A stretch of DNA of 64,000 bases from an uncultured Alphaproteobacteria bacterium (GCA_944391735.1 CALXUR010000001.1:14924-78923), one strand, 5' to 3'; counted from the first letter of the stretch, positions 814-51,071 are shown. The notes: generated from the sequence alone by a model not told the origin. Numbers and translations are program-made.

Positions 814-819
814 AAGGAA

Positions 820-1179
820 ATGGATATTGTAGATAATGCCAAAACCATATATGCACTAGTAAAAAAATTAGGTGATCTTGATTTATTGGAAAAAATGGCT
901 GACCTAAGAGATGAAATTTTCGAATTACGTGAGGAAAATAGAAATCTAAAAGAGAAATTAGCTGAAAAGAATAACTATGAGATGCATTTTAAGCACAATA
1001 TGTACTGGAATCCTGATGAAAAAGATGGCCCTTATTGTTCAAAATGTTGGGATGACAATAAAAAGGCTATTCGTTTACAAAAACAGAATGGAGAATATTA
1101 TTGTCCTGTTTGTCGTAAGACCGTATTAAAAGAAATCGTTGATATCACACCAATTAAATACGATAATTCAGAATGGTAA
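820..1179 (+). CDS. Hypothetical coiled-coil / zinc-ribbon protein inside the type I R-M operon
   Basis: The ATG lies 7 nt after the hsdS stop. The protein has a charged helical N-terminus (LREENRNLKEKLAEK) followed by two CxxC pairs (CSKC...CPVC). No family recognised. Confidence 0.55.
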   Translation: MDIVDNAKTIYALVKKLGDLDLLEKMADLRDEIFELREENRNLKEKLAEKNNYEMHFKHNMYWNPDEKDGPYCSKCWDDNKKAIRLQKQNGEYYCPVCRKTVLKEIVDITPIKYDNSEW

Positions 1180-1183
1180 AAAA

Positions 1184-2134: not shown

Positions 2135-5100
2135 CACAACAATACATTCTTCCTGATTTTGATGAAGCTAGCAGTTCCCAAATCCCTGCAATTTTGCAGT
2201 TGATTAACTTGGGATATACCTATATTTCACGTCATGAAGTTGAAACTCATCGTGATGGCAAAAATCAATATATCTTGCGTGATATTGCACACCAAGCCCT
2301 ACGTAAAATTAATCCATCAGAAATATCTGATAAAAGTATTGATGAAGCCTTGTTTGCGTTGGAAAAAATTAAACTGGATGATGGTGTAGTTAAAGCCTCG
2401 GAAGACGTGTTTTCTGATTTGTTGGGGGGACGTGCTGTTTCTGAGATTATTGATGGGAAACGTACTTCTCCACAGCTTAAATTTATTGATTGGAAAGAGC
2501 TAAGTAATAATGTCTTTCATGTAGTAGCAGAGTTTGAACTGGAAGAAGATCAAAATCGCAGACCAGATATTGTTTTGTTTGTTAATGGTATTCCCTTTGC
2601 GGTTATTGAAAACAAAAAGGCCTCTGTTTCTGTGGATGAAGCTATTACACAGATGATACGTAACCAGAAATACTCCCAAACACCAAAGTTCTTTTTGTTT
2701 CCACAAATCTTGATTGCAACCAATGTTAACCAAATTAAATATGGAACTATGCTAACTCCATTTGAGTTCTACTCTGTTTGGAAAGAAAAGGAAGCTCCAA
2801 AGGATTATGAAAAAAATGTGTTGGAAAGTGTCAATAAGCCTGTTGATGTAAAAACTGTGGCTCAAATTGGGGAAGATTTGTTGAGGAGCTCCTACAAGCA
2901 AGCGAAAAAACAAACTTTAACAGCACAAGATTATGGAATTTATAGCTTATTAAAGCCAGAAAGATTATTGGATTTAGTCCGTAATTTCATCATCTATGAC
3001 AATGGCATAAAGAAAATCACCCGCTATCAACAATATTTTGCCATTAAAAAGACAATTGCCAAAATTCAAACAATGAATGAAAATGGTAAAAGACGCGGTG
3101 GCTTAATTTGGCATACCCAAGGAAGTGGTAAATCTCTGACGATGGTTATGCTTGTTAAAAATTTGATTGAAACGATTACCAATCCGCGCGTTATTGTTGT
3201 AACAGACAGAATAGATTTAGATATTCAAATTCGCGATACTTTTGCTGCTTGTAATATTAAAACAGGTGTTCAACAAGCAACATCGTGCTCCGATTTAGTT
3301 AAAAAGATTAAATCTAAAACTTTGGATGTTATTACAACTTTGGTTCACAAATTTGATAAGCCGACCAATTTTGTAGACGAGGATAACAATATATTTGTTT
3401 TAATTGACGAAGCACATCGAACTCAAGGCGGTGATGCCAATGCAATGATGAATAAAATGTTGCCAAGGGCTTGCCAAATTGCTTTTACAGGAACTCCGTT
3501 AATGAAAAAAGTTCCGGCCAGATTGGAAGGGAAAGTTATCTCTAAATCGCAATCGATTCAAAAGTTTGGTGGATTGATTGATGAATACACGATTTCGGAA
3601 GCCGAAAAAGATGGAGCGGTATTACCTCTTATCTATCAAGGACGTTTTGTTGATCAAAAAATTGATAAAATTGCAGATAAATTTTATGAACGGTTAGCCT
3701 CAAGATTCTCGGAAAGTGAACGTAAGGATTTTGCCAAGAAGTGTATTTCTTCTTCGGTTTTAGAGGAAACATCACAACGTATTGAAATGATTGCTTTGGA
3801 TGTAAATGATCATTTCTTGAAAAACTTTAAGAACACAGGTCTAAAAGGACAGTTGGTTGCTCCGAGTAAATATGCGGCTGTTATGTTTAAAAAAGCGCTG
3901 GAAATGTTGGGGAATATCAACGCAGAAGTCGTTATATCCGATACATTGGCCGAAGAAGGTAAGGATGATGTTAACTCAACCCATAAGAAGCTGGTAACTG
4001 AATATATGGCCGAACAAAAACACAAATATGGTTCCTTAGAAAGCAGAGAAAAACAAATCATTCAGGATTACAAGAAAAATCCAGAAGGATGTGAATTACT
4101 TATTGTTGTGGACAAACTTTTGACTGGTTTTGATGCGCCAAGGGATACTGTTTTGTATTTAGCCAAACAACTGAAAGATCATAACTTGTTACAGGCAATT
4201 GCTCGTGTTAACCGAGTTTTTGATGGTGATGCAAATAAACAAAGTAAAACAGCAGGCTTAATTGTAGATTATTCTAAAAACGCAAAAAACCTAAAAAATG
4301 CATTGGAACTGTTTTCAAACTATGCTCCTGAAGATATTGAAAATGCTTTATTGGATACAGAAAGCCAAATTGCACTTTTGAAGAACATATACACACGTCT
4401 ACACGATGTGTTAAAAAATGTTACTGACATTAATAATAGTAATGCCTACGTAGAATTTTTAGCAGATAAAGCTCATGAAAAGGAAAAAGAGGCATTCTAC
4501 GATGATGTTAATAAATTCATTAAACAATTTTCTGTTTGTTACTCTTTGTATGATTTTCATGATAAAATGGATCAAGATACTTTAGAGATTTACAAAAAAG
4601 ATCTGAAACGTTTTGTTGAAATCAAAAAAACAACCCAACTTGTGCTGGCAGAAAAGGTCGATTTTTCAAAATATAAAGACCAAATTATGAAATTACTGGA
4701 TAAATATGTCAGCGCAGGCGATGTTGAGGTGTTGTCTAAAGAAATTAGTTTGTCTGATATGCATGAATTTAATCAGTATATTGAAGATGAAAACAATGGA
4801 TTATCGGATAAATCTAAAGCTGATGCTATTTTAGCACAAACAAGAAAAGTTTTAAGAGAACGCTATGAGCTTCAAGATGAAGTCTTTTATGGGAAATTTA
4901 GTGAATTTATTGAAAAGCTTCTAAATGACTTGAAAATTGCAAAAAAAGAAGATTTGGCCTCTCTACTAAGTCAGGCAAAAGAAATACAAAAAAAAGTGAG
5001 TGATTATGAAGATAATGATATTCCTCAAAATATGAGAAACGCCAAGGTATATCATCCTTTTTATCGAAATATTCAAAAGTTTTTTACAACAACCGGAGAC

Positions 5101-5313
5101 GCTTATACACAAATTATTGAACATATCGTTGGCTTAATAAAATCTTCAAAAGTGGTAGATTTCCAAAATAATTTGAATGTAAAAAGAAAGATCTTTAATG
5201 AGCTGGAAGATTATTTGTTTGATGAAGTAGACGAAAAATTGTCTGCAGATACAATTGAACAAATTACAGAAACTGCTTGGAATATTGTGGTTCAAAATAA
5301 GGATATGCTCTAG
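2131..5313 (+). CDS. hsdR: Type I restriction enzyme R subunit HsdR
   Basis: Nuclease block 'RPDIVLFVNGIPFAVIENKK', helicase motif I 'HTQGSGKSLTM', motif II 'LIDEAHRTQ', 'FTGTP' and motif VI 'QAIARVNR'. Length is 1060 aa. Confidence 0.95.
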   Translation: MTQQYILPDFDEASSSQIPAILQLINLGYTYISRHEVETHRDGKNQYILRDIAHQALRKINPSEISDKSIDEALFALEKIKLDDGVVKASEDVFSDLLGGRAVSEIIDGKRTSPQLKFIDWKELSNNVFHVVAEFELEEDQNRRPDIVLFVNGIPFAVIENKKASVSVDEAITQMIRNQKYSQTPKFFLFPQILIATNVNQIKYGTMLTPFEFYSVWKEKEAPKDYEKNVLESVNKPVDVKTVAQIGEDLLRSSYKQAKKQTLTAQDYGIYSLLKPERLLDLVRNFIIYDNGIKKITRYQQYFAIKKTIAKIQTMNENGKRRGGLIWHTQGSGKSLTMVMLVKNLIETITNPRVIVVTDRIDLDIQIRDTFAACNIKTGVQQATSCSDLVKKIKSKTLDVITTLVHKFDKPTNFVDEDNNIFVLIDEAHRTQGGDANAMMNKMLPRACQIAFTGTPLMKKVPARLEGKVISKSQSIQKFGGLIDEYTISEAEKDGAVLPLIYQGRFVDQKIDKIADKFYERLASRFSESERKDFAKKCISSSVLEETSQRIEMIALDVNDHFLKNFKNTGLKGQLVAPSKYAAVMFKKALEMLGNINAEVVISDTLAEEGKDDVNSTHKKLVTEYMAEQKHKYGSLESREKQIIQDYKKNPEGCELLIVVDKLLTGFDAPRDTVLYLAKQLKDHNLLQAIARVNRVFDGDANKQSKTAGLIVDYSKNAKNLKNALELFSNYAPEDIENALLDTESQIALLKNIYTRLHDVLKNVTDINNSNAYVEFLADKAHEKEKEAFYDDVNKFIKQFSVCYSLYDFHDKMDQDTLEIYKKDLKRFVEIKKTTQLVLAEKVDFSKYKDQIMKLLDKYVSAGDVEVLSKEISLSDMHEFNQYIEDENNGLSDKSKADAILAQTRKVLRERYELQDEVFYGKFSEFIEKLLNDLKIAKKEDLASLLSQAKEIQKKVSDYEDNDIPQNMRNAKVYHPFYRNIQKFFTTTGDAYTQIIEHIVGLIKSSKVVDFQNNLNVKRKIFNELEDYLFDEVDEKLSADTIEQITETAWNIVVQNKDML

Positions 5314-5997
5314 ATGATTGATATGGATAACATTAAGGTTGTTAAAGAAAAGCGCAAATCTCTAGCAGTGGAAGTTTATCCTAATTTTACTGTTCTAGTA
5401 AAATCACCAGAACAAGCAAAAGATTTTGAAATCAAAGATTTTATTAAGAGAAAAACAACCTGGATTGAAAAACAATTAAATTATTTTAAACAGTTCAATA
5501 TGCCCGAAGATAAAGTCTATGAATCTGGTAGTTCGGCGCTATATTTAGGACGTCAATATCAGGTCATTATTGAGAAATCACCATTGCGCAATATTATAAA
5601 GGTTCTAAACAATAAAATTTATATTTTAACTCCCTCACCGCAAAAATTGGATGAAATTAATCATGCTTTGCAAAATTGGTTTATAAGGCGTGGTGAAACT
5701 ATTTTTAATGAACGTCTGAATTTTTGCATGAAAGCATTTCCTGATTTAAAGATGCCAAAATTAAAGATAAGAAAACTTAATAAGCGCTGGGGCAGTTATT
5801 TAAAAAAACATGAAATTGTTCTTAATCCAGCTTTAATTAAAGCTAGTAAACAATCTATTGATTATGTTATTTATCATGAGCTTTGTCATGCATATTACCC
5901 AAATCATACAGATGAATTTTATAATCTTCTTTCTCTTAAGATGCCTAACTGGGAAAAGATAAAAGAGAAAATGGAGTTAAAATTATTAAGTTATTAG
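5314..5997 (+). CDS. YgjP-like (DUF45 / M48-type) zinc metallohydrolase
   Basis: 'RWGSYLKKHEIVLN...IDYVIYHELCHAYYPNHTDEFYNLL' is the HExxH block typical of YgjP-family genes that follow hsdR. The ATG directly abuts the hsdR stop. Confidence 0.85.
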   Translation: MIDMDNIKVVKEKRKSLAVEVYPNFTVLVKSPEQAKDFEIKDFIKRKTTWIEKQLNYFKQFNMPEDKVYESGSSALYLGRQYQVIIEKSPLRNIIKVLNNKIYILTPSPQKLDEINHALQNWFIRRGETIFNERLNFCMKAFPDLKMPKLKIRKLNKRWGSYLKKHEIVLNPALIKASKQSIDYVIYHELCHAYYPNHTDEFYNLLSLKMPNWEKIKEKMELKLLSY

Positions 5998-6006
5998 GGA
6001 TGTCAA

Positions 6007-6465
6007 ATGATTAAAGTTTTATTCGTATGTCTTGGAAATATTTGTCGGTCGCCGATGGCGGAGTTTGTGATGAAACAAATGGTCGCCGAAAAAGGTCTGG
6101 CGGACCAATTTGAAATTGCCTCTGCCGCGACAGAGGGGTATAGCGAAATGGTGCATGAGGCGCTGGATTACCGGGCAGCGGATATGCTGAAACAGATGAA
6201 AGTCCCTTACACCGAGCATTATTCACGTCAAATTCGCAAGTCCGACTATGATAAATTTGACTATATTTTGGCAATGGATGATAATAATGTGCGGGATATT
6301 TTGGATATCGTTGGCGGGGACAAGGACCACAAGGTTCATCGCCTGCTGGACTTCACCCAAAATCTTCGTCCGGTTAAGGATCCTTGGTACACCGGTAATT
6401 TTGATGAGGCCTATTGGGATATCGTTGAAGGTTGTGATGCGTTTTTAAAAAAACTAGGTTTTTGA
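6007..6465 (+). CDS. Low-molecular-weight protein-tyrosine phosphatase
   Basis: The N-terminal CX5R(S) P-loop 'VCLGNICRSPMAE' and downstream 'DPWY' loop are present. The size (152 aa) fits the family. Confidence 0.85.
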   Translation: MIKVLFVCLGNICRSPMAEFVMKQMVAEKGLADQFEIASAATEGYSEMVHEALDYRAADMLKQMKVPYTEHYSRQIRKSDYDKFDYILAMDDNNVRDILDIVGGDKDHKVHRLLDFTQNLRPVKDPWYTGNFDEAYWDIVEGCDAFLKKLGF

Positions 6466-6478
6466 AGGATATAATACG

Positions 6479-7240
6479 GTGAACAATGAAATAATAAAAA
6501 ATATAAGCATACAAGAGCAACAAACTTCAATGCTCGAATTTATTGAAAAATCAATAAAAAAAATAAATCAAACACCATGTAGTTATAAAGAAAAAATAAT
6601 TTTAGATTGGGAACTGCGCAGAGAAGAGGCCTATAAAACATTTTTACTTCTTTATAAAAATGAACGTTTTTACGATGCAATGATTATTGCTGGTTATATT
6701 TTCGAATTATCATCTTTAATACATGATGTAACAAATATAAAGAAGACAGATCCTTACGATAAACATTTTATGATGTATGCCATTTCAAATCTTGAAACAA
6801 TTTTATTACAATGTGATTTACCAAATTGGAAGGTTACTCCTAAATTGCAATGTAAATATGCGGATTTTATCCAAATGTTGGAAAATGCTATTGAAAAAAT
6901 TCCTAATGAACCGGGTATAAAAAATGTGGATTGGAAAGGAATAATAGTTAAACTTAAAAATAAAAATATTAAAAATAGTAACAAAGTTGAACTATTAAAG
7001 CAAAACTACAAGGCTCCATCTATAAATATTCAAATAACACAATTTTTAAAATTTATGAAAAAGAAAATTAATAAAACAAACGATCCGTTCATTATGGGAA
7101 ATGAAAATTTATTTAGATTGGGCTATCAAACATACTGTATTTTAAAACATAATGGAATAGCTGCGTTTGATTTAGAAGAAGCATATATAAAACAAAGTAG
7201 TTTGTTTTTAGCATTTTGTCTTAAATATTTTGCATCATGA
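6479..7240 (+). CDS. Hypothetical protein (253 aa, Lys/Asn-rich)
   Basis: A long ORF with a GTG start 8 nt after an AAGGA. No motif recognised. Confidence 0.45.
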   Translation: MNNEIIKNISIQEQQTSMLEFIEKSIKKINQTPCSYKEKIILDWELRREEAYKTFLLLYKNERFYDAMIIAGYIFELSSLIHDVTNIKKTDPYDKHFMMYAISNLETILLQCDLPNWKVTPKLQCKYADFIQMLENAIEKIPNEPGIKNVDWKGIIVKLKNKNIKNSNKVELLKQNYKAPSINIQITQFLKFMKKKINKTNDPFIMGNENLFRLGYQTYCILKHNGIAAFDLEEAYIKQSSLFLAFCLKYFAS

Positions 7241-7441
7241 TTCCGTACTTTTCCATTTAGCGATCATTTGTTCCAATTTATGAGATAGACGATTGATTTC
7301 GTATTTGTATTTAATCGGTAGCGCTGGGGTGTTAAGTCTGCTCAGTCGTCTGTCCAGTCTATCAAGTACTCTAATTGCATGGTTATAAACCATCGGCATG
7401 CTGATTTTGTAATTTGGAGGAATGTCATTATAGTGTTTCAT
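7235..7441 (-). CDS. Hypothetical small protein (68 aa)
   Basis: An ORF in a minus-strand string of small genes, with helical, basic composition. No family recognised. Confidence 0.35.
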   Translation of the reverse strand: MKHYNDIPPNYKISMPMVYNHAIRVLDRLDRRLSRLNTPALPIKYKYEINRLSHKLEQMIAKWKSTES

Positions 7442-7522
7442 TTTCTACTCCCATGTATCGGCAATAACTTGAACCGGAAGGATCGACATAAAGCGTTGGC
7501 TTGTTGGAGCATTTTATAGCAA

Positions 7523-7741
7523 CTACTTTCGGTGGCCTGTATCATCATAACCGCCTTTACCGGATAAGAAAATGTAGTTATCCAATGGGCGTTGGCAAAA
7601 CTCCTCATACCAAGTTGGTGGTAGGTTGACAGTTTCTTCAATTAAGACCTCTTCGGCCTCATGCGTATACTTTTTGCATAAAGTTTTTACTTCCTCAAAA
7701 TCCGAAGGTTTTCGCACCATATAAACTTTAACTGTATTCAT
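7523..7741 (-). CDS. Hypothetical small protein (72 aa)
   Basis: Its ATG overlaps the stop of the upstream small ORF (ATGA at 7738-7741). Composition is protein-like. Confidence 0.4.
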   Translation of the reverse strand: MNTVKVYMVRKPSDFEEVKTLCKKYTHEAEEVLIEETVNLPPTWYEEFCQRPLDNYIFLSGKGGYDDTGHRK

Positions 7742-7908
7742 TTGGAAGCCTCTTTTATTTTTTGTATTTCTGTTTTTAATTTTTTGTTTTCTTCTTCTAC
7801 GGCTTCAATTTCGCTCATATATGCCCAAGTGCCATCTTCATCGCAAATAGCAATGCGAGCATCAAAATCAGGCGCTTCTTTTGTTTCGTGATACCATGTT
7901 ACTGTCAT
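7738..7908 (-). CDS. Hypothetical small acidic protein (56 aa; not in the ORF track)
   Basis: Hand translation gives MTVTWYHETKEAPDFDARIAICDEDGTWAYMSEIEAVEEENKKLKTEIQKIKEASK. Its stop overlaps the start of the 7523..7741 ORF. Confidence 0.35.
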   Translation of the reverse strand: MTVTWYHETKEAPDFDARIAICDEDGTWAYMSEIEAVEEENKKLKTEIQKIKEASK

Positions 7909-8048
7909 TGTGACTCCTTTCGTTACGACATAATGAATGCTTGAAAAAACAAGAAAGTCCAGTGAAATAGAAAAATTTTTGAATAATATTGTAAATTCTA
8001 AAACTTTCAGCTATTATTATGTATATAACAACAGATATGGAGGTAGAA

Positions 8049-8489
8049 ATGCCAATTAACCAGGAAAATGGAAAGCTTGGGGAACAAGAAGTTGTAGATT
8101 TGGTCTGTTGTCCTAATTGCGGTAAAAAGCTAATGCTTTTACCTCCTAATTATCCACTGTGTGATATACAATGTACTGGTTGTAATTTTAGAGCTCAAAT
8201 TAAAACATCTAATCACAAACCATCATCAATTGTACGAGGTGCGGGTTGGGATATTATGGAAAAAGTACTAAAAGCAGGGATTTTACCTCCTTTGCTTATA
8301 TTAAATTTTAAATGGAAAGAAAAGAACGTACTACACCAAGAAATTAGATTTTATCCATTTGTTCCTAAAAATCATCTAAAAAAATACACTCTGTCTCCAG
8401 AAGCTAGACGAGCTAATTATAGAATGTTTAATTATATAAATATGGATAAATTACCTCACTTTGTTCTCTATAAAAAAACCGAAAAGTAG
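8049..8489 (+). CDS. Putative PD-(D/E)xK-type nuclease with inserted zinc ribbon
   Basis: GGAGGT precedes the ATG at 8049. 'GKLGEQEVVDLV' is followed by CPNCG...D-IQCTGC...AQIKT, giving a D...(Q)xK arrangement with two CxxC pairs. The assignment rests on motifs only. Confidence 0.4.
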   Translation: MPINQENGKLGEQEVVDLVCCPNCGKKLMLLPPNYPLCDIQCTGCNFRAQIKTSNHKPSSIVRGAGWDIMEKVLKAGILPPLLILNFKWKEKNVLHQEIRFYPFVPKNHLKKYTLSPEARRANYRMFNYINMDKLPHFVLYKKTEK

Positions 8490-8651: not shown

Positions 8652-9980
8652 GTGACTCAAAATTTTAATACGGCCGACAGTATGGGACGTTTAATGCTCA
8701 ATGTTTTACTATCTTTTGCTCAATTTGAACGCGAAATATCCGGCGAGCGCATTCGGGATAAAGTAGCTGCCTCGCGTAAAAAAGGTATGTGGACAGGGGG
8801 CCGACTCCCCCTCGGATACGATGTTGTGAACAAAAAACTGATTATTAATCAAAAAGAGGCAGAAATTGTGCGCTATATTTTTAATCGGTATCCAGAGGTT
8901 CCTTCGGAGCTGATTATTGCTAACGAACTGAACGAAAAAGGTTGGCATCCGAAATTAAGAAATGCAACAAATACACCTTCTGTATTTCAGGCAAGCAATA
9001 TTTCTGCCATAATACAAAACCCCATTTACATCGGAAAAATAAAGTTTCATAATGAGTTATATGACGGTATTCATCAACCGATCATTGAAAAAAGTATTTT
9101 TGAAAAAGTAAATAAAATCAAAAAACAAAAGAATCCGGGAAGACCAAAACATCCTGAATACAAAGATGATGGTTTATTAAAAAATTTAATCCAATGCGGA
9201 TGTTGCGATAGTCCCATGCATATAACCACAATTAAACGTGGCCCAAAACGTTATCGGTATTATATCTCTGATATTGCTGAAAAGAAAGGACATAGCCACT
9301 GCGACATTGCACAAGTCAATGCCGGTGAGTTTGAAAATATTATTTTAAAAACAATCAAGCCTCTCTTTAAAACAACAAATTTTATTCAAACATTGGCAAA
9401 TGAAACCAAAAGCATTGATCTCGCTTGTCAAGAACGTGAGGTGTTTGATGCCATGAGTGATTTTGAAGAGGTTTTTGCGGGATTAAGCCTGTCAGCACGC
9501 CGAGAAATCCTACATCTGTTAATTTGTAAGATTATTGTTTATCCAGATCATATTCTGATTGATTTTAGAAACGCCACACGAGCAGTTATGCCACAAAAGA
9601 TGTTGGAATCCTTAGAACCTGGGATAAACATGATAAAAGTCCCTTATTGTTTAATTAAAAAAAGAGGTAAAACAGTTTTGTTATCTGCTCAAATGACAAA
9701 GACAGAAACAGACCAAGCTCTTATAAAAGCGATTGTCCGTGCATTTCAATGGACAAAAACAATGGAGACAGAAGGAATTACCCAAAAAGAACTGGCTAAA
9801 AGAGAGCACATTAATTGTGGATATCTTGGGAAAATCATGCGTCTGACAATTCTGGCACCGAATATTATTCAAGCTATTTTAGAGGGGAAACAACCAACTT
9901 ATCTGACAGTGGATACTTTTATGCGCAATGTTATCCCTTATCGTTGGGATGAACAACGAATCAAGTTTAAATTTAAGTAA
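8652..9980 (+). pseudogene. Large serine recombinase lacking the N-terminal catalytic Ser region
   Basis: The ORF begins in the distal part of the resolvase domain ('GRLMLNVLLSFAQFEREISGERIRDKVAASRKKGMWTGGRLPLGYD'). It continues through the recombinase domain and Zn-ribbon (CGCC...HC). About 90 aa, including the nucleophile Ser, are missing. Confidence 0.75.
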
Positions 9981-10893: not shown

Positions 10894-11551
10894 AAAGAGT
10901 TCTTTTATTTTCTTTCCGGCAGAATTTTTGTCAGCCATACATAATTTCCGAAAAAGTCAGGTAGCGGATTTAATAATTGCGCTCTGCGAAATTAATTATT
11001 ACGGAGACCTGTCTGTAAAATTATCAGACCCGGTAAAAAAGCGTTTAGAAAATTTACAAGCCACTATTGAAAAGAATAATGCCAAATATAAGGAAATTTG
11101 CGAAAAACGCCAAGCAAGCGGTGCAAAAGGCGGAAGCAAACGTCAAGCAAAAGACAAGCAAACACCAAGCAAACGCAAAGCAAAAGTTCCGCCACCCCAC
11201 ACGGGTGAGTCGGAGAATGAGAATGAATCGGATAATGTAAATGAAAATGGAGATAAAGATAAAGGGGCGGATTGTGTGGATAAGTCGGAATATGTCGGTG
11301 CGCCGAGTGTTGATGAGGTGGCGGCGTATTGCAAAGAAAGCGGGTACACGATTGACCCTGTTGCGTTTGTGAAATGGAATGAGGCTCGTGGCTGGATGAA
11401 TGGCAAGAAGTATATTGCCGTTGATTGGCGTAAAGCCGTTCGGAAATGGTTTTGCAAAGAAAACGGACTGTCACTCAGTGAAATGGAGACTTTCTCGGAT
11501 GTTTGTGCCGATATGCTGGACAAAGTAAAGGCGGTGCACCATGAAAGTTAA
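10886..11551 (+). CDS. Phage replication-associated protein (conserved phage C-terminus type)
   Basis: The C-terminus 'VDEVAAYCKESGYTIDPVAFVKWNEARGWMNGKKYIAVDWRKAVRKWF' matches the pattern of the conserved phage C-terminal domain (Phg_2220_C type). The middle is a low-complexity basic linker. Confidence 0.6.
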   Translation: MDKKSSFIFFPAEFLSAIHNFRKSQVADLIIALCEINYYGDLSVKLSDPVKKRLENLQATIEKNNAKYKEICEKRQASGAKGGSKRQAKDKQTPSKRKAKVPPPHTGESENENESDNVNENGDKDKGADCVDKSEYVGAPSVDEVAAYCKESGYTIDPVAFVKWNEARGWMNGKKYIAVDWRKAVRKWFCKENGLSLSEMETFSDVCADMLDKVKAVHHES

Positions 11552-11926
11552 GAGTATTGATGAAATCAAAGACATCTTGGAAACAGCCGCTTATGTTGAT
11601 CGTCTGCTTCCCGCTGTTCAGGCTCCGAAATATCGGTGTTGCATGCCGGAGATTATTTATACGCCCCAAGAAATCGCCTTTATGGATCGGCGGCCGGTTA
11701 GACCTCGCCCAACCCAAGAACAGGTCAGTTTATGGGAAATGGTTATTTTGAATGGATGCCGCTTTTAGAGATTTATGAACGGCGACTGGTTTGGAAACGT
11801 GCTAATCGTATTCCATGGAAACTGCTTTGCCGCGAATTCGGGGTTTCTCGGCAACAATTGTGGCTAAAATACGACAAAGCACTCACAAAAATTCAGTTCG
11901 GTACAAAGCCCAAAAAATGTCATTGA
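11541..11926 (+). pseudogene. Phage-type HTH-like gene split by a frameshift at a T4 run
   Basis: ORFs 11541..11768 and 11732..11926 overlap. Adding one T at 11746-11749 yields a continuous '...QVSLWEMVIFEWMPLLEIYERRLVWKRANRIPWKLLCREFGVSRQQLW...'. Confidence 0.45.
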
Positions 11927-12027
11927 CATCTTTTGGCTTTACATTTTACCCATTTTCAACCTATGTTATGGTTATAATCGGGACGAATCCATAAGGAACG
12001 TCCCTTATTTTTACAAAAAAGCATTGG

Positions 12028-12056
12028 CTCGTCAGCTCTGGCTGACGGGCTTTTTT
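12028..12056 (+). terminator. Rho-independent terminator-like hairpin just upstream of the MetK-like start
   Basis: A 9-bp stem ctcgtcagc/gctgacggg with loop tctg, followed by cTTTTTT. A weaker hairpin gggacg/cgtccc plus a T-rich tail lies at 11980-12012. Confidence 0.6.
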
Positions 12057-12077
12057 CATATCCAAAAAGGAGAAATT

Positions 12078-12773
12078 ATGAAAAAAACAGCGGAAGCGGT
12101 GTCGCTCGGACACCCCGATAAAACGGCGGACTATATCTCAAGTTACATTTTAGACCGAATGATTGCCCAAGACGAGCAAGTCAAATATGCGGTTGAAGTT
12201 ATGATTAAAGACAATACGGTGGTTTTGGGTGGCGAGATTACGGGTAATGTGGATTTATCCAATCTTGAAGAGTTTGTTAAAAATGCACTTCGTGATATCG
12301 GGTATGATGAATGTTATGCTGAAAACTGGGGTACAAATGCCATAGATGTCCGCAAAATTGAAGTCATAAACCTCATAGGTCAACAGTCAGCAGACATAAA
12401 CCAAGGTGTTATTTCCAACGGTTGGGGCGATCAAGGCGTGTTTGTTGGTTATGCTTGCAAGGGCGACGGACTTATCAGCAAGGAACAATATCTAGCCCGT
12501 TTCTTGAACAACGCCCTTTATATCAAGGCCCGCCAGAGTAAAAACCTCGGGATTGATATCAAAACGCAAATTACCCTCAATGATTACGGGCATATTGAGA
12601 CGGCAATTGTCGCCCTTCCGATGCTTGAACACGAAGATTTGAGCGGTTTTATTGTTCAAACATTGGGTGAAAAGCCCGATAACATCATCGTAAATGGCAC
12701 AGGGACGTTCAAATTGCATTCCTCCATCGCAGACTGCGGCATTACCGGTCGCAAATTAGCCTGCGATTTTTAG
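12078..12773 (+). pseudogene. metK: S-adenosylmethionine synthetase (MetK)-like gene lacking the C-terminal third
   Basis: 'VSLGHPDKTADYIS..ILD', 'QSADINQGV', 'GWGDQGVFVGYA' and 'DCGITGRKLACD' match MetK blocks. The ORF stops right after the GRK motif, and no downstream frame continues the family sequence. Confidence 0.7.
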
Positions 12774-12824
12774 AATATTCCCAAAAAATTTTAAGCATTC
12801 AGAGTTTTTCCAACAAAATAAAGT

Positions 12825-12853
12825 TTGACTTTTAAATTTATTTGTGATATAAT
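12825..12853 (+). promoter_or_regulatory. Near-consensus sigma-70 promoter with extended -10
   Basis: TTGACT (12825-12830), a 17-nt spacer ending in TG, then TATAAT (12848-12853). The next ATG is at 12862. Confidence 0.65.
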
Positions 12854-12861
12854 ACGGATTT

Positions 12862-13388
12862 ATGGATTTAAGTTATATAGAACAATATAGGTTACTTTAT
12901 AAAAACAAGCCAAGATATGGGAAGACTTCTTTATCGTTGTTTCCTATTGTGGCACCGTTAATACGACAAATGGGTTGTTCTGAAATTTTAGATTATGGTT
13001 GTGGGCAGAGCCAACTTGCTGATGTTTTGGAGAAAAAATTGAACGTATTCGTATATAAATATGATCCAGCGATTGCCAAATTTTCTATCCTTCCAACAAG
13101 AAAATTCGATTTTGTAATTTGTACAGATGTTTTACAACATATTCCAATTAAGGATTTAAATGAAGTTCTTTTACAAATAAAAAAATATTCATCTAACTGT
13201 TTTTTTATATTAAGTGTTCAAAACATCATACATTATTACCCAACGGCATGTTGGCAAATTGTACAGTTCATTCACCAAAATGGTGGCAAACCAGACTAGG
13301 CCTTTTTTTTAATATTGTTACAAAAATGCCTACGGAAGATAAAACGATTGCCTCTTTTGTAACAAAAGGAGTTCATAATGACTTATAA
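12862..13388 (+). pseudogene. Class I SAM-dependent methyltransferase, frameshifted at a T7 run
   Basis: Motif I 'ILDYGCGQSQLA' and 'FDFVICTDVLQHIP' are present. After the T-run at 13200-13206 a sensible C-terminus ('YIKCSKHHTLLPNGMLANCTVHSPKWWQTRL...') continues in the other frame to a stop at 13386-13388, overlapping the next ATG. Confidence 0.7.
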
Positions 13389-14550
13389 TATTCATATTAG
13401 AGATGAAATATTTGGTGGTACGGTTTTAAACTTGATTACAGGAAAGAGAGAATATGTTAATGAACAAGAATTATCTGATATCCTTGTATATAATAGATTT
13501 CCTACCAATTCTATTACTAAAAATATAGATCAGCATCATTATATTAAACATATTTCTATAGAGGATAGTAAAAAAATTAAGAACGGATTTAGTTTTGCTG
13601 ATGTAGCATTTATTGAATTAACCAGAGCGTGCAATTTAAAATGTCCTCACTGTTTAAACAATTCTGGTTCAAAACAAAATTCTCAAATGTCTTTCAGAGA
13701 AATTACAGAGCTTATTAAAGAACTGGCCTGTGCCGGACTGCAGGAAATCAGATTTACGGGTGGAGAACCGCTATTACATCAAAATCTTTATGATTTTATC
13801 CAATTAACAACTGATTTGGGACTATATTCATCTTTGGGAACAAATGGAACTCTATTAACTGAGGAAGTTGCGCTAAACTTAAAAAAAGCAGGATTAAGAA
13901 AAGCTGTGGTCAGTATTGATGGCACTCAAGAGCAACATGATAAAATCAGGGGGACTGGAAATTATACTAAATCATTTAATGCCTTATATTATTTAATAAA
14001 AAATGATATAGATGTACGTATTAATTCAGTGCTTATGAAATCTAACATGAAAGATATTATTGATTTTGCGAAACAAGTTCATGATAAGAAAATTTTACTT
14101 TTTATTAGACGATTCATAGAATCTGGAAGAGGGAGTTCTTTAAAAAACAATATGTTAAGCAAAAAAGATTATGATTATGTTAGACAAAGTTTAAGTAATG
14201 AACTTGAAACTGGAGGATATGTTAATGGTCACTATTTACGAAATGATGAGGGAATACATCCTCGAATTTCACTGCCATTTAAAATTAAAGCTTGTAAAGC
14301 AGGACAACGAGCATTAGCAATTATGCCTAATGGTGACATACACCTGTGTGGTTTTTTGGCGGCTCAAAATTTTCCGGCAGTTAGCAACATAAGAGAAATT
14401 CATGATTGGTCTTTGTTTTGGAAAAATCTACAAGCGTCAGATCAATTATCTGATTTATATAATAATTTAGATAAATATAATAGTGTTCCTGGTATTCAAA
14501 CAACCTATTGTTTGGCATATGTGCAAAATTTTTTAAATAAGAGGCAATAA
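13378..14550 (+). CDS. Radical SAM enzyme (PqqE-like core) with N-terminal extension and twitch/SPASM-like C-terminal region
   Basis: The CX3CX2C motif sits in 'ELTRACNLKCPHCLNN'; 'RFTGGEPLL' and 'GTNGTLL' are also present. The C-terminus has 'CKAGQRALAIMPNGDIHLCGF' plus one more Cys. An extension of about 80 aa precedes the cluster motif. Confidence 0.85.
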   Translation: MTYNIHIRDEIFGGTVLNLITGKREYVNEQELSDILVYNRFPTNSITKNIDQHHYIKHISIEDSKKIKNGFSFADVAFIELTRACNLKCPHCLNNSGSKQNSQMSFREITELIKELACAGLQEIRFTGGEPLLHQNLYDFIQLTTDLGLYSSLGTNGTLLTEEVALNLKKAGLRKAVVSIDGTQEQHDKIRGTGNYTKSFNALYYLIKNDIDVRINSVLMKSNMKDIIDFAKQVHDKKILLFIRRFIESGRGSSLKNNMLSKKDYDYVRQSLSNELETGGYVNGHYLRNDEGIHPRISLPFKIKACKAGQRALAIMPNGDIHLCGFLAAQNFPAVSNIREIHDWSLFWKNLQASDQLSDLYNNLDKYNSVPGIQTTYCLAYVQNFLNKRQ

Positions 14551-14552
14551 CA

Positions 14553-15143
14553 ATGTTAATCGCTTTAACCGGATTACATGCAGCTGGGAAAAGTCACTTC
14601 ACACACACAATCCCAGAGAAGTTTGGATTTTCTGTTTATAACAAAAAAGAAGTGATTGCTACAATTTGTCAAAATGAAACCGGACGTAAAGATTGGGATG
14701 TTTGGTATCGAGATGAATTTAGAAAAGATCCATATTTAATGACATCTAAAATTATTTCTGTTATACCTAAAAGTGAAAATAGCATATTGGATTCGGTTCA
14801 CAGCTATAATGAGTGGCAAATTATAAAACAGATAAGAGAAGAGTGTTTCTTATCAGTGGTTGTAACACCTAAGCTTATCCGTTCTTTGCGATGGGAAAAA
14901 GATGATAAAACAAAGGATTTACAACGCATTAAGTATTGGCATAGTGTATATGGAGAAGAATTAGGGTGTTTATTGGCGGAGGCAGATTGGTCGTTTAATG
15001 GGGCCGCGTCACAAGAACTAAACGAAAAGGGATTTAAAGAATTGATTGGGCTGCTTTCTCGGAAACGATGCATTTCCCATCAGATACCGTTAAAACAATT
15101 AGAGCAACAAAGACAAAGAGGGATTGAACATGACAATTGTTAA
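14553..15143 (+). CDS. P-loop NTPase / nucleotide-kinase-like protein
   Basis: An N-terminal Walker A 'LTGLHAAGKS'. The size (196 aa) and layout resemble small nucleoside or nucleotide kinases. Confidence 0.55.
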   Translation: MLIALTGLHAAGKSHFTHTIPEKFGFSVYNKKEVIATICQNETGRKDWDVWYRDEFRKDPYLMTSKIISVIPKSENSILDSVHSYNEWQIIKQIREECFLSVVVTPKLIRSLRWEKDDKTKDLQRIKYWHSVYGEELGCLLAEADWSFNGAASQELNEKGFKELIGLLSRKRCISHQIPLKQLEQQRQRGIEHDNC

Positions 15144-15576
15144 AAAAGCCGGCTGTGTTTTAATAAATAAAAAAACAAAAATGATTGGGTTAATCTATAG
15201 ACAAAAACAAAAAGATTATTCTTTTTCAAAAGGTCATTTAGAAGAGGGAGAAACTTTAGAAGAATGTGCTATAAGAGAAACAGAAGAAGAAACAGGGAGG
15301 ATGTGTACCATTATTCCATCACAACCGCTTCCAGTTTTAAGGTACATAGATTCAAAAGGTGATAAAACAGAAGCTTTTTATTTTTTAGCACAAGATATAG
15401 GGTCTTCCACAACAAGTTTTAATCCAGATCTTGTGCATGAAATTATTTGGGTTCCTTATGATAAGGTTGATAAAACTCTATCATATCCAAATTTAATTCA
15501 ATTCTGGAATGATATTAAACCATTAGTTAAGAAGGCATTGTATGAAGATACTAAAGATTTTTTTATCCAGAAATGA
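15130..15576 (+). CDS. Nudix hydrolase
   Basis: Complete Nudix box 'GHLEEGETLEECAIRETEEETG'. Confidence 0.85.
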   Translation: MTIVKKAGCVLINKKTKMIGLIYRQKQKDYSFSKGHLEEGETLEECAIRETEEETGRMCTIIPSQPLPVLRYIDSKGDKTEAFYFLAQDIGSSTTSFNPDLVHEIIWVPYDKVDKTLSYPNLIQFWNDIKPLVKKALYEDTKDFFIQK

Positions 15577-15796
15577 TGATTCCGAAATGTGTATGATTTA
15601 TGATGTTATTGTGCATCCGCATTATCAGAAAAAAGGGGTTGGCACCCTATTGATGAATGAGGTTTTAAAATACATTCAAACCAATCATTTTGCGACCGTC
15701 AGTTTGTTTTACGATACTAATAATAATACGTTAACCCGTTTTTACGAAAAATTTGGATTTATCCAAATTCCAAATACAATGCGATTAAAAAAGTAA
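15542..15796 (+). pseudogene. GNAT acetyltransferase fragment (C-terminal half only)
   Basis: Contains motif A 'VHPHYQKKGVGTLLMNEV' and the 'FYEKFGF' tail. Only about 84 aa remain, and the start overlaps the preceding Nudix gene. Confidence 0.55.
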
Positions 15797-15973
15797 AATC
15801 CTTAGGAATTGATATCTTGAACGTGCCAGAACTTTACTTTCAAAGAGATACTTTTATCAATACATATTTACAAAATTGATTTGATATTTTATTAAAACTT
15901 TTGTATATTGAAACGATAAAAAGATGTTTTGAAGGTATCACCATTTATTCCAAAATCAAAAAGAAAAGATAGA

Positions 15974-16465
15974 ATGAAAATCTATATTATCGGCGGACCC
16001 GGCAGCGGAAAAACGACTTATGCCAAAAAATTATCTGCAAAATGGTGCATTCCTCATTTTGATTTAGATGAAATCAAATGGGTTAATGGAGGCAGTCAAT
16101 CTCCTTATAATCAAAAACGATCCCCGGAAGAGCGAACACGTCTTTTAAATGATATTCTAACCCAAAACAATCATTGGATTTGTGAGGGGGTTTATTTTCA
16201 AGATTGGATAATACCCGTCATCCAACAAGCCGATATTGTCCTTATTTTACAAACTTCCACCTGGATTCGGCAATATCGCATTATTAAACGGTCTTTTAGG
16301 CGATTATTCCATTTTGATCCCCCCAAATATAAAGAAACGCCCCTCACTTTGTTTCGTTTATTGCGTTGGTCCCAGGTTTATGATACAAAATATTTACCTC
16401 AAGCATTGGCAAAAATCACAGCTGCAAAAACCAAATATCATATTATCAAACGAAGGAAAAAATGA
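15974..16465 (+). CDS. P-loop kinase of the adenylate-kinase / 'topology modulation' (FlaR-like) type
   Basis: 'MKIYIIGGPGSGKTTYAKKLS...PHFDLDEIKW'. It resembles the ORF at 25815..26339. Confidence 0.65.
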   Translation: MKIYIIGGPGSGKTTYAKKLSAKWCIPHFDLDEIKWVNGGSQSPYNQKRSPEERTRLLNDILTQNNHWICEGVYFQDWIIPVIQQADIVLILQTSTWIRQYRIIKRSFRRLFHFDPPKYKETPLTLFRLLRWSQVYDTKYLPQALAKITAAKTKYHIIKRRKK

Positions 16466-16872
16466 CATATTGCATTAAAAAATCGGCGGCGGTTTTTATT
16501 TTCCAAAAAGGAAATGAATATTTATTCCTGAAAAGGGAGCACACCGGTGCAGGGGATGGGTTTTATATGTTGCCTGCCGGACATATCGATGACGGGGAAA
16601 CTGTTTTAGAAGGGGCCGTCCGTGAAATACAAGAGGAGCTAAATGTAACGGTTCAACCTCAAGATTTAGAGTTTAAAATCGTAGTTGTCACACAAACACA
16701 CGTTAATTTTTTCTTTCAGATAAAAAAATACACGGGTGTATTAAAAAATAATGAATTAGCAAAACACAGTGATTTAAAATATCTGCCACTGACAGCAAAA
16801 GACATTTCTCCCGATATTCCTATTAAGATCTCTTTAATAGAAAAAGGGGTATATTTTTGGGAAGAAAAATGA
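16462..16872 (+). CDS. Nudix hydrolase
   Basis: Nudix box 'GHIDDGETVLEGAVREIQEELN'. The ATG overlaps the previous stop (ATGA). Confidence 0.8.
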   Translation: MTYCIKKSAAVFIFQKGNEYLFLKREHTGAGDGFYMLPAGHIDDGETVLEGAVREIQEELNVTVQPQDLEFKIVVVTQTHVNFFFQIKKYTGVLKNNELAKHSDLKYLPLTAKDISPDIPIKISLIEKGVYFWEEK

Positions 16873-16983
16873 AAAAAATCAACAGAGCAAAATATATCGG
16901 TTGTAACACAGGCGGGTAATTTAAACAGATTACGTCAGATAAAAAATTAAAGTGTAACAAAGAAGAATCAAAAGGATCCTATT

Positions 16984-17496
16984 ATGAAAATATTAAACCC
17001 CGTTCAAATGATAACTGACGATATTTGTTTTCAGACGGAAAATCAACGTCGATTTCGATTAAGGGCGGCCGGTATTATTATTGAAAACAAACAGATTTTA
17101 TTTGCCCATAATGAAAAAGAACCGTATTATTATTCTGTCGGCGGAGCAATCAAGTTGGGAGAAACTGCCGAAGAAGCCTGTATACGAGAGGTTTTTGAGG
17201 AAACCGGTATTCATTACGAAATTGACAGACTTGCCTTTATTCACGAGAACTTTTTTAAACGGGATGACGGAACACTCAAAGGATTAGACTGTCATGAAAT
17301 TAATTTTTATTTTCTCATGAAATCTCGAGGGACACAAGTTCTCAACAGTCACAGTTCAACACTCGGCATTCCGGAGCACATGGCTTGGCTACCGATGAAC
17401 GCATTGGATCAATACGAAGCCTATCCGATGTTTTTCAGAACAAAATTAAAAAACATCAAAACATCAGGCTTTGAACATATTATAACACGCGGGTAA
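16984..17496 (+). CDS. Nudix hydrolase
   Basis: Nudix box 'GGAIKLGETAEEACIREVFEETG'. Confidence 0.8.
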   Translation: MKILNPVQMITDDICFQTENQRRFRLRAAGIIIENKQILFAHNEKEPYYYSVGGAIKLGETAEEACIREVFEETGIHYEIDRLAFIHENFFKRDDGTLKGLDCHEINFYFLMKSRGTQVLNSHSSTLGIPEHMAWLPMNALDQYEAYPMFFRTKLKNIKTSGFEHIITRG

Positions 17497-17500
17497 ACAA

Positions 17501-18208
17501 ATGATAGAATTTTACGTTTCCTCGGATACCGAAAAACAAAAACTAATGGATATTTTTTGTGTCGCCCCTATCGGGAAATCTTTAATGGAACGAGCAAAAC
17601 AATACCATTTCCCCCCGGATATGGCAAAGAAAATGCAAACAAGTCCTCGGATCCAATGGGATGAGGCGTTAGAAGAGTTGTTGGAGACAACATACTTAAA
17701 ATATAAAAACGATCTCGAGGTCGCCCACTCTTTTTTTCATTGCTTCTGGAATAAAAACGGAGAAGCTTATTTATCAAAACTCGACTCTTTTTTCGGGGAG
17801 AGATTTCCGGATTATCGCGTTTTACTGGCATGTTATTTAGATGTTGTTTCCAACTGGAAAGAGTGTAACATCGTGATTAATCATGCCCTGTATAAAAAGG
17901 CAAATGTGTTATACTCTGTTTACGGCATTCTTTTTGAAATGGTTTTATCTCAAATTTTTATAAAAATACGCACCCTTAAAAATAAAACAGAAATGTCCGA
18001 TAAACAAGTATGGGGACGTTCGGAACTGGCCGCTTGCGCTATTTTAAACAAATTATATCCGGCATTTCAAAATTCCGTGAAAACAGGGTATCCCGAACTT
18101 GATTCATCGATGCCTTTATTTTTGGAGGTAATTCAAAAAGCGACGCATTTAACGCCTTTTTTAAACGAAACAATCAATCTGACACTCCCGTTTGATAGAA
18201 AAGAATGA
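17501..18208 (+). CDS. Hypothetical protein (235 aa)
   Basis: A long ORF tightly packed between its neighbours; its stop overlaps the next ATG. No motif recognised. Confidence 0.5.
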   Translation: MIEFYVSSDTEKQKLMDIFCVAPIGKSLMERAKQYHFPPDMAKKMQTSPRIQWDEALEELLETTYLKYKNDLEVAHSFFHCFWNKNGEAYLSKLDSFFGERFPDYRVLLACYLDVVSNWKECNIVINHALYKKANVLYSVYGILFEMVLSQIFIKIRTLKNKTEMSDKQVWGRSELAACAILNKLYPAFQNSVKTGYPELDSSMPLFLEVIQKATHLTPFLNETINLTLPFDRKE

Positions 18209-18567
18209 CAGAGAAAATGGAAAATTTATTTAGGAAACTGTCAACCTCTCCTTTCAGAAGTCGTTTTCATTTGACAGACATCGATCGGAAATACATTCGT
18301 GAAAAAGGAATGGCCGTTATTCGCCAACACGCTGAAGATTTTATTACCAAACGCTTGGCACCGGCCGAACCATCCCATGACGGTCGGCAAACACCTATGC
18401 GCGGTCATCCCGTTTTTATTGCTCAACACGCGACGGCAACGTGCTGTCGACAATGCTTGTTTAAATGGCACCATATACAACCGCATATCCCCCTTTCAGA
18501 AACACAACAAATCTATATTGTTGATATTATCATGTGTTGGATTGAAAAAGAAAACGGTGCTTGTTAA
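18205..18567 (+). CDS. DUF4186-family protein
   Basis: 'RLAPAEPSHDGRQTPMRGHPVFIAQHATATCCRQCLFKWHHI' matches my recollection of the DUF4186 signature. Confidence 0.7.
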   Translation: MTEKMENLFRKLSTSPFRSRFHLTDIDRKYIREKGMAVIRQHAEDFITKRLAPAEPSHDGRQTPMRGHPVFIAQHATATCCRQCLFKWHHIQPHIPLSETQQIYIVDIIMCWIEKENGAC

Positions 18568-18579
18568 AAAGCACCGTTC
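18552..18579. terminator. Bidirectional hairpin between the convergent DUF4186 gene and clpB
   Basis: Stem aacggtgc/gcaccgtt flanked by A and T runs. Confidence 0.5.
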
Positions 18580-50902: not shown

Positions 50903-51071
50903 GATGTTTTACATAATCAAAAATTTATTTTTAATAAAAAAAATCATTTTTTTGTCTTTTTTTGTATGTATTTTGCAAAAAAGATGTTGACAGCCGCCAA
51001 AAACAAGGCTTTACTAGGGATTAGCAGGGATAAAGTCTGCTAAAACATAATCTTAATCAAAGGAGTGTATT

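Follow-up and report, generated by a model that had tools for sequence, protein, structure and literature searches.

Several described radical S-adenosylmethionine (SAM) systems bear on the locus considered here. In the kinase-associated viperin systems, which include pVip and eukaryotic viperin with CMPK2, the radical SAM enzyme stands next to a P-loop kinase of the nucleoside monophosphate (NMP) kinase fold. The maturases SkfB, SuiB and CteB act on peptides and combine an N-terminal domain, a radical SAM core and a Cys-rich C-terminal domain that opens with a C-x13-G-x4-C hairpin. ATP-grasp enzymes and protein-kinase-like (RIO-like) proteins occur in the pathways of RiPPs, peptides that are made on the ribosome and modified after translation. 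BlsE acts on a nucleoside sugar, and the other enzymes of the blasticidin-type peptidyl-nucleoside pathways include an ATP-grasp ligase and a SAM methyltransferase. MoaA, the GTP 3',8-cyclase, acts on a nucleotide, and the three Cys that ligate its C-terminal auxiliary cluster leave one iron able to bind substrate. We compare with these systems a radical-SAM-centered gene cassette found in a stretch of 64,000 nucleotides from an uncultured Alphaproteobacteria bacterium (GCA_944391735.1 CALXUR010000001.1:14924-78923); this whole stretch is called the window below, and positions are counted from its first letter.

The cassette is a real, conserved and uncharacterized operon, probably for tailoring, that is rare, patchy in its distribution and found across phyla. 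Full-text searching of the literature returned no description of it, and no curated family matches it. By analogy, its logic appears most like that of the kinase-associated viperins, the architecture of its radical SAM enzyme most like that of the SkfB-type maturases, and its likely substrate class like that of BlsE or MoaA, and it departs from each of these families in at least one of the defining features tested. In the window it occupies the middle of a run of genes that had initially been taken for a single cluster of SAM- and nucleotide-dependent enzymes. We assign a probability of about 0.6 to the reading that this region is a mosaic of three modules in a low-GC island, the middle one being a damaged, horizontally acquired cassette for the tailoring of a phosphorylated nucleotide-type metabolite.

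The run itself is as first described. Eleven consecutive + strand open reading frames (ORFs) span positions 12024-18567 in the ORF listing, the ATGA overlaps at 16462 and 18205 are confirmed by the junction sequence, and the 3' part of a frameshifted methyltransferase gene, ending at 13388, overlaps the ATG of the radical SAM gene at 13378 by 11 nt. Pfam and NCBIfam likewise support all of the original domain calls, that of DUF4186 through a precomputed Pfam match. The view that the eleven genes form one cluster was not upheld, as comparison with two sister-strain contigs that have the same clpB flank as the window (L093 and L094) and with 22 other species splits the run into three modules. 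The first (12078-12773) is what is left, the 5' two-thirds, of a metK-like phage gene with which a decayed prophage ends. The second (12825-15576) is the horizontally acquired cassette, with its own promoter, and contains a methyltransferase, the radical SAM enzyme, a P-loop kinase and a Nudix hydrolase. The third (15577-18567) is a strain-conserved group of small genes beside clpB, made up of a GNAT remnant, an adenylate-kinase-like kinase, two Nudix hydrolases, a helical protein and DUF4186. The claim that all of the genes act on SAM or on nucleotides goes too far: no function can be assigned to a 235-aa protein and the DUF4186 protein, and the GNAT would use acetyl-CoA.

In L093 the cassette is intact, ATP-grasp gene included, and the order runs from the MetK fragment through the methyltransferase (175 aa), radical SAM enzyme, kinase, Nudix, ATP-grasp (247 aa), a 78-aa ORF and a 188-aa kinase to a complete GNAT, the second kinase, Nudix, Ham1, Nudix, the 235-aa protein, DUF4186 and clpB. 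L094 has no cassette. Its metK-like gene is full length (333 aa), the place of the cassette (L094 3685-7172) is taken by a 162-aa ORF, a Peptidase_S66 (MccF-like) gene, a 319-aa radical SAM gene that differs from the one in the window and runs on the opposite strand, and by Nudix and GNAT genes, and the whole right-hand module is kept, with a MazG-like gene further to the right. Homology between the window and L094 ends at 12772, the end of the MetK fragment, and restarts at 15575. Since the cassette-free strain keeps the genes from GNAT to DUF4186, these are residents of the site that are independent of the cassette, while the break in homology with L094, the context of the metK-like gene in an intact prophage (L091) and its match to a phage protein family identify the MetK remnant as phage debris cut at the left edge of the cassette. 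GC content agrees with the three-module split, being 0.41 in the phage remnant, 0.32 in the cassette and 0.36 in the right-hand module, with 0.48 in clpB. More widely, GC is low (~0.33, against 0.45-0.50 in the host) across an ~18.6-kb island that ends at clpB and that also contains type I restriction-modification (R-M) genes, a DpnI-like gene, a serine recombinase and phage early genes, so that the AT-rich island, the R-M system and the phage remnant pointed out in the initial annotation are all real. The host is a gut bacterium, which homologues of its ClpB assign to uncultured Alphaproteobacteria. A tidy same-strand run of thematically alike genes can thus still be a mosaic, and it was the sister-strain comparison that parted cargo, remnant and residents and accounted for every gene that had been listed as damaged. 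As a separate observation, the swap of cargo in L094 makes the site behave as a hotspot for genes that handle nucleotides or antimetabolites.

Conservation of the cassette was examined in a scan of GTDB with one genome per species (185,579 species). Among the best 80 loci, true relatives of the radical SAM protein were present in at least 22 species, at 34-59% identity and with the N-terminal domain included; the remaining matches (≤31%) are generic SPASM enzymes. The 22 species are uncultured Clostridia, Bacilli, Erysipelotrichaceae and Tenericutes together with two bacteria of the candidate phyla radiation (CPR), so that, with the alphaproteobacterium of the window, the cassette crosses from Firmicutes to CPR bacteria and Alphaproteobacteria. 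More than 560 clusters of radical SAM homologues at 54-62% identity derive almost entirely from gut metagenomes, the cassette being common in those of humans and animals, and many of these clusters (dozens) are 559-aa proteins with an N-terminal Methyltransf_23 domain, that is, methyltransferase-radical SAM fusions. A census with hidden Markov models (HMMs) found the ATP-grasp enzyme in 19 of the 22 species and the cognate kinase in 15, and a Nudix hydrolase with at least one kinase accompanies the radical SAM enzyme in all 20 of the sufficiently long loci. The kinase, ATP-grasp, Zeta-like, metallo-beta-lactamase (MBL) fold and RIO-like families were absent from all 58 control loci around unrelated SPASM radical SAM enzymes. 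The neighborhood of radical SAM, kinase and Nudix genes, whose conservation the initial annotation had proposed to examine across genomes, is therefore conserved as far as this core is concerned, and for the core only.

Two arrangements recur. In type A the radical SAM enzyme is followed by the P-loop kinase, an optional small helical protein, Nudix and ATP-grasp, and the operon then continues with an NDP-sugar-type short-chain dehydrogenase/reductase (SDR) or with a pair consisting of a small protein and a Zeta-like kinase. In type B the order is radical SAM enzyme, ATP-grasp, optional SDR, MBL-fold protein, Nudix, the small-protein/Zeta-kinase pair and a RIO-like kinase. A variant from Bacilli (L025 5967-8185) replaces Nudix and ATP-grasp by a 265-aa protein without assignment, a RelA/SpoT-like pyrophosphokinase and a cytidylyltransferase-like enzyme. 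Besides the methyltransferase-radical SAM fusion, fusions of radical SAM with ATP-grasp (643 aa) and of Nudix with ATP-grasp (382-389 aa) were verified. Integrases lie no more than three genes from the cassette in 6 of ~20 loci. An integron-like cassette array was rejected, as most within-module junctions overlap or leave 2-4 nt and give no room for attC (a spacing argument only). As a side observation, a helical protein of 65-76 aa directly precedes the Zeta-toxin-like kinase in L008, L017, L020-L024 and L027, a pairing like that of epsilon and zeta; L017 has two such small-protein/Zeta-like pairs (for example 13120-14219), and the small protein has no Pfam match.

The copy in the window, all on the + strand, begins with a sigma-70-like promoter (12825-12853; TTGACT, 17-nt spacer, TATAAT, extended -10 TG) that agrees with the consensus at 11 of 12 positions and is the best site in the region. 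Its -10 box ends 8 nt before the ATG of the methyltransferase gene and positions 12848-12864 contain no Shine-Dalgarno sequence, an arrangement in which the mRNA used for translation of the methyltransferase may be leaderless or nearly so. The class I methyltransferase gene (12862-13388; Methyltransf_23) is frameshifted; with one T restored it encodes 176 aa, and its domain shares 43% identity with the one at the N-terminus of the 559-aa fusions. The radical SAM gene (13378-14550; 390 aa; Radical_SAM E = 2e-26) appears intact. The P-loop kinase that follows (14553-15143; 196 aa; NMP-kinase fold) is 40-52% identical to the gene after the radical SAM gene in 15 of the 22 species, with a conserved Walker A motif GLHxxGK[ST], and its best profile match is SSO1041, an archaeal adenylate-kinase-like (AdkA-like) protein (E = 8e-9). 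The Nudix hydrolase (15130-15576; 148 aa; likely start 15130) shares 44-58% identity with its counterparts in the cassettes of other species, and its nearest solved relatives are the Ap6A hydrolase Ndx1 of Thermus thermophilus (E = 1.6e-10) and Mycobacterium smegmatis MutT1 (E = 7e-9). The genes at 12862-15576 are orthologous to the first four cassette components, and those at 13378-15576 keep the order of their Firmicutes counterparts, with identities of 54-59% for the radical SAM enzyme, 40-52% for the kinase and 44-58% for the Nudix.

The damage to parts of the run is real and goes further than had been stated. The methyltransferase gene has a run of seven T at 13200-13206 where L093 has eight, which causes a -1 frameshift; its surroundings are 99% identical to L093 over the aligned stretch, and the L093 gene is intact (175 aa). 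A deletion of 2445 bp has removed from the window the counterpart of L093 4922-7366, with the junction at 15575-15577 in a GAT microhomology, and with it the ATP-grasp gene (247 aa), the 78-aa ORF, the 188-aa kinase gene and the N-terminal half of the GNAT gene. What had been described as half a GNAT gene is in its C-terminal part just that, with a match to positions 53-116 of the 116-position profile, but the ORF is a chimera made by the deletion (15542-15796, + strand, 84 aa): its codons 1-10 (MKILKIFLSR) come from the ATP-grasp gene, whose protein also starts MKILKIFLSR, and the GNAT half follows. A third lesion lies in the right-hand module, where the window has a 39-bp filler (16885-16923) whose bases are unrelated to the 746 bp with a Ham1-like (ITPase) gene that the sister strains have there. 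The radical SAM, kinase and first Nudix genes look intact downstream of their near-consensus promoter; because the methyltransferase gene is frameshifted and the ATP-grasp gene deleted, the sequence indicates that this copy of the cassette is very probably non-functional or reduced in function. It would be a poor start for experiments, for which intact copies such as L093 or the Clostridia loci with the 559-aa fusion (for example L004) are better suited.

The radical SAM enzyme has ~84 residues ahead of its CxxxCxxC motif (C85, C89, C92) and exactly three conserved Cys in its C-terminal part (C306, C324, C378); the seven-Cys SPASM motif is absent, as these three are the only Cys conserved after the core. 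The Cys positions thus confirm the initial description of an N-terminal extension of ~80 aa and of a twitch-like rather than full SPASM domain. A confident AlphaFold2 (AF2) model, with a predicted local distance difference test (pLDDT) score of 87.7, places three strands and one helix at the N-terminus, ahead of a TIM-like core and of a C-terminal domain opening with a C-x13-G-x4-C hairpin. The N-terminal beta-sheet domain (residues 1-75) is specific to the family: an exhaustive phmmer search with 78 residues returned only family members and fragments, and the whole family, down to its CPR members, keeps R8, E10, F12, G13, G22 and R24 without exception and K23 almost so. In Foldseek the first ranks are taken by SkfB, SuiB, MoaA, BlsE, CteB, PqqE and anSME, with viperins much lower. 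Profile searches agree, with SkfB at the top and BlsE second among solved structures (2e-23). The NCBIfam matches include MftC, StsB, WgkB, PqqE and other maturases, and the scores for curated NCBIfam families are all far below their cut-offs.

Most likely, the cassette uses radical chemistry to tailor a phosphorylated small molecule of nucleotide type and is carried as mobile cargo. In the scheme that we propose, the kinase or kinases would phosphorylate a nucleoside or nucleotide-type substrate and the radical SAM enzyme would perform the key C-H activation; by analogy with MoaA, its three-Cys auxiliary cluster could leave one iron open for a small ligand. The methyltransferase and the ATP-grasp enzyme would decorate the product, and the Nudix hydrolase would trim polyphosphate or protect the producer. 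The product would probably be used in conflict, as an antiviral compound or an antimetabolite, because the distribution of the cassette is mobile and patchy. The initial annotation had suggested the synthesis or clearance of a modified nucleotide, and since the partner enzymes are of nucleotide type a modified-nucleotide pathway is still the best reading; the substrate class is what we infer from these partners. They include, in the variant cassettes, Zeta-toxin-like kinases, RelA/SpoT-like and cytidylyltransferase-like enzymes, an SDR of the NDP-sugar dehydratase/epimerase type and a phosphodiesterase-like MBL protein.

The presence of BlsE and MoaA, whose substrates are nucleosides or nucleotides, among the best matches of the radical SAM enzyme fits the same theme. 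BlsE stands eighth in the Foldseek list, identity to it is only ~21%, and the cassette has no Bls-type glycosyltransferase, aminotransferase or nucleotide hydrolase and is hosted by gut anaerobes and CPR bacteria rather than by actinomycetes. MoaA is a good match in both sequence and fold, but its Cys spacing differs from that of C306, C324 and C378, it has no counterpart of the N-terminal domain, and the cassette has no molybdopterin gene context.

A more specific version of this pathway, which we offer tentatively and regard as doubtful in its full detail, is a new family of mobile nucleotide-tailoring systems. Here a kinase (P-loop, Zeta-like or RelA/SpoT-like according to the variant) would phosphorylate a nucleotide, possibly at the 3' position, and the twitch-type radical SAM enzyme would use the phosphate as leaving group or handle to give a novel modified nucleotide. 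This would be decorated by the ATP-grasp enzyme and methyltransferase and would serve as an antiviral or antibacterial antimetabolite from which the Nudix hydrolase protects its producer. If a modified nucleotide is indeed the product, the cassette would give radical SAM chemistry another way, besides viperin and with no structural relation to it, of making bioactive nucleotides, and its set of tailoring enzymes and natural fusions would be ready to guide biochemistry.

Several results weigh against our favored reading as a whole. The substrate class depends on the likeness of the partner enzymes to known families, and no partner reaches a curated cut-off. The ATP-grasp enzyme is no closer to ligases than to inositol-phosphate kinases: it has weak matches only, to ITPK1/PPIP5K and to RimK, which do not tell ligase from kinase. 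A known defense system, which the initial annotation had considered, did not emerge from PADLOC-DB v2, where the only matches were generic ones to the radical SAM core and to Nudix (PDC-S07). That database gave no match for the cassette kinase or for the ATP-grasp, SDR, RelA/SpoT-like and cytidylyltransferase-like proteins, and weak partial matches only (E about 1e-4) for the Zeta-like kinase, MBL and RIO-like kinase. Defense genes are not enriched in the cassette flanks (106 flanking proteins in 22 loci), where the only recurrent genes are integrases, Fic/Doc and miscellaneous housekeeping genes. As to decay, the frameshift was observed in two assemblies only, which may derive from one sample, and the T7/T8 difference could be phase variation or a homopolymer assembly error instead of a fixed lesion. 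Finally, the best structural matches of the radical SAM enzyme are SkfB (E = 4e-18), SuiB and CteB, peptide maturases with an N-terminal peptide-recognition domain, and the conserved motif IREExFGG of its own N-terminal domain aligns with LRPEPFGA of MftB; these maturase-type fold matches and the MftB-like motif favor a peptide substrate.

A cassette that modifies a peptide or protein is accordingly the alternative to be considered first, and we regard it as possible but doubtful. The N-terminal domain of the radical SAM enzyme would in that case be a truncated RiPP recognition element (RRE) that docks the peptide, the radical SAM enzyme would cross-link or epimerize it, the ATP-grasp enzyme would ligate or cyclize it and the kinases would phosphorylate side chains, with a substrate that is encoded elsewhere or is a host or phage protein. 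Such a role is consistent with the Foldseek alignments to SkfB, SuiB and CteB, which run longer than the radical SAM core, with SkfB as the top profile match and with the maturases among the NCBIfam matches; the use of ATP-grasp and RIO-like proteins in RiPP pathways also points this way, as do sub-threshold NCBIfam matches to MftB and the motif in common with MftB. These matches reach only 0.07 and 0.2, in two of eight sequences, and alignment of the N-terminal domain by hhalign with two MftB proteins from plasmid records gives a probability below 1%. The Pfam PqqD profile has no match to the domain even at E ≤ 10, and the single helix after three strands in the model suggests that a full winged-helix RRE is absent. 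The initial question whether the extension is RRE- or PqqD-like thus receives a divided answer, the fold ranking and the short motif speaking for it and the Pfam, NCBIfam, hhalign and phmmer searches giving no demonstration of it.

The gene content of the loci tells further against a peptide. Clustering of the 18-110-aa ORFs that lie up to 1.2 kb from 20 cassettes brought out no conserved precursor beside the radical SAM gene, in agreement with the initial remark that no precursor-peptide-like ORF is visible there; the small ORFs that do recur are antisense shadows of conserved genes, plus two helical accessory proteins. A classic RiPP cluster is rejected on this ground. RiPP pathways do not ordinarily employ Nudix, NMP-kinase-like, RelA/SpoT-like, cytidylyltransferase-like or NDP-sugar SDR enzymes. 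Compared with SkfB, SuiB and CteB, the enzyme has the same overall layout of an N-terminal domain, a radical SAM core and a Cys-rich C-terminal domain with its C-x13-G-x4-C hairpin, but it has three auxiliary Cys instead of seven and an N-terminal domain shorter than an RRE, and it stands among nucleotide enzymes with no conserved precursor peptide.

An anti-phage system of the viperin type, in which the kinase would supply an NTP, the radical SAM enzyme would convert it to a chain-terminating analog and the accessory enzymes would broaden or control the product, seems unlikely to us. The likeness lies in the arrangement: the window copy and the loci of 15 of the 22 species have an NMP-kinase-fold gene directly after the radical SAM gene, as in pVip and CMPK2 loci, the partners are of nucleotide type, and the distribution is sporadic and mobile, with integrases near. 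Type I R-M and DpnI-like genes share the island of the window copy, variant cassettes carry Zeta-like and RelA/SpoT-like toxin-type enzymes, and the radical SAM core matches pVip HMMs at about 1e-24 (6e-24 and 4e-23 for the pVip profiles of PADLOC). These matches are confined, however, to residues 81-270, the generic radical SAM core, and in Foldseek the viperins rank below 24 other structures, with template modeling (TM) scores of 0.44-0.52. The family has a 75-residue N-terminal domain and a three-Cys twitch-like auxiliary domain that viperins do not have, and with only the core matched and these domains added, membership of the pVip family is rejected. The cassette differs also in its obligatory ATP-grasp and Nudix enzymes and in its optional methyltransferase, SDR, MBL, Zeta-like and RelA/SpoT-like components, and the flanks, as noted, are not enriched in defense genes. 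Searches of the GenBank phage collection, IMG/VR and PLSDB gave no relatives of the radical SAM family above ~30% identity. An origin of the family in phages or plasmids was rejected on this result, and the phage and viral collections are therefore neutral on a role in defense.

A reading of all 6.5 kb as a recombination hotspot by clpB, with no functional unit in it and a nucleotide theme that is a coincidence of common families (Nudix, P-loop kinases), is very improbable. Three strains with three different contents at the site, modules of differing GC and relatives of the 235-aa protein that lie elsewhere amid assorted APH, HAD, Ham1, GNAT and Nudix genes speak for it, and it suits the right-hand module. 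It does not suit the core: from Alphaproteobacteria to CPR bacteria the methyltransferase, radical SAM enzyme, kinase and Nudix stay closely spaced in one order and orientation, and they are fused in several lineages.

To the left of the cassette, the metK-like 5' fragment (12078-12773, + strand, 231 aa) is the last gene of the prophage remnant and lies outside the cassette; what had been counted as a SAM synthetase-like member of the cluster is a truncated phage gene, cut where the cassette begins. The start first assigned to it, a TTG at 12024, falls within a terminator-like hairpin (12026-12051, + strand; an 11-bp stem with 7 G-C pairs, then a T run), and the true start is the ATG at 12078. 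The fragment contains an S-AdoMet_synt_N match (E = 7e-23) and fits the phage family phrog_1569 (E = 1e-48, profile positions 3-227 of 346) better than bacterial metK: against TIGR01034 it scores 126.7 bits for a cut-off of 309.4, over profile positions 3-246 of 377. With a score this far below the cut-off and the C-terminal domain absent, it was rejected as a methionine adenosyltransferase. Full-length versions of 332-333 aa are present in the intact lambda-like prophage L091 and in L094, and in the former the gene follows DUF6291 and DUF6362 and precedes a ParB-methylase gene and the terminase. The window copy is therefore like the phage MetK-like proteins in its profile match, its relatives lying in a prophage early region, and differs from them in lacking the last ~100 residues, C-terminal domain included. 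Decay is also seen elsewhere in the remnant. The DUF6362 phage gene at 11541-11926, a single gene of 128-142 aa in its relatives, is broken here into a pair of overlapping ORFs of 75 and 64 aa, which match consecutive parts of phrog_6836. A large serine recombinase (8652-9980) has lost its first ~110 residues, the catalytic resolvase N-terminus, with stops upstream in all three frames; lacking this catalytic part, the element is probably immobilized.

Module 3, to the right, is a separate strain-conserved group of genes of house-cleaning type beside clpB, all on the + strand. After the chimeric GNAT ORF come the second kinase (15974-16465; likely start 15974), adenylate-kinase-like and similar to PRK06217 and to the topology-modulation protein family (E = 4.5e-23), the second and third Nudix hydrolases (16462-16872 and 16984-17496), both conserved in L093 and L094, an all-helical protein of 235 aa (17501-18208) that is restricted to the lineage of the window, and the DUF4186 protein (18205-18567; 120 aa; PF13811), the last gene before clpB, from which it is separated by a terminator-like hairpin (18552-18579, - strand) between the convergent genes. 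None of these five genes has a specific counterpart beside the radical SAM gene in the loci of other species, and the second Nudix is only generically similar (27-34%) to the Nudix of type B cassettes. The 235-aa protein has no match in Pfam, NCBIfam, PADLOC, PHROGs or a PDB sequence search and forms only 9 clusters among 5.8 billion proteins; for its AF2 model (pLDDT 74.7) Foldseek gave no PDB fold match. Distant relatives at 53-62% identity occur in L104 and L105 amid APH, HAD, Ham1, GNAT, Nudix, AAA_33-kinase and methyltransferase genes, and in the lineage of the window small enzymes for detoxification or house-cleaning seem to gather into clusters.

The left part of the island (1-8489) is a defense-type neighborhood upstream of the prophage remnant. 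It contains the S and R subunits of the type I R-M system with two small genes in between, a YgjP-like metallopeptidase, a low-molecular-weight phosphatase, a 253-aa protein without assignment and the DpnI-like gene (8019-8489), which abuts the serine recombinase. A second dip in GC (0.33) at 51000-52000 adjoins a tRNA-Val gene (51398-51474) and may be another small insertion.

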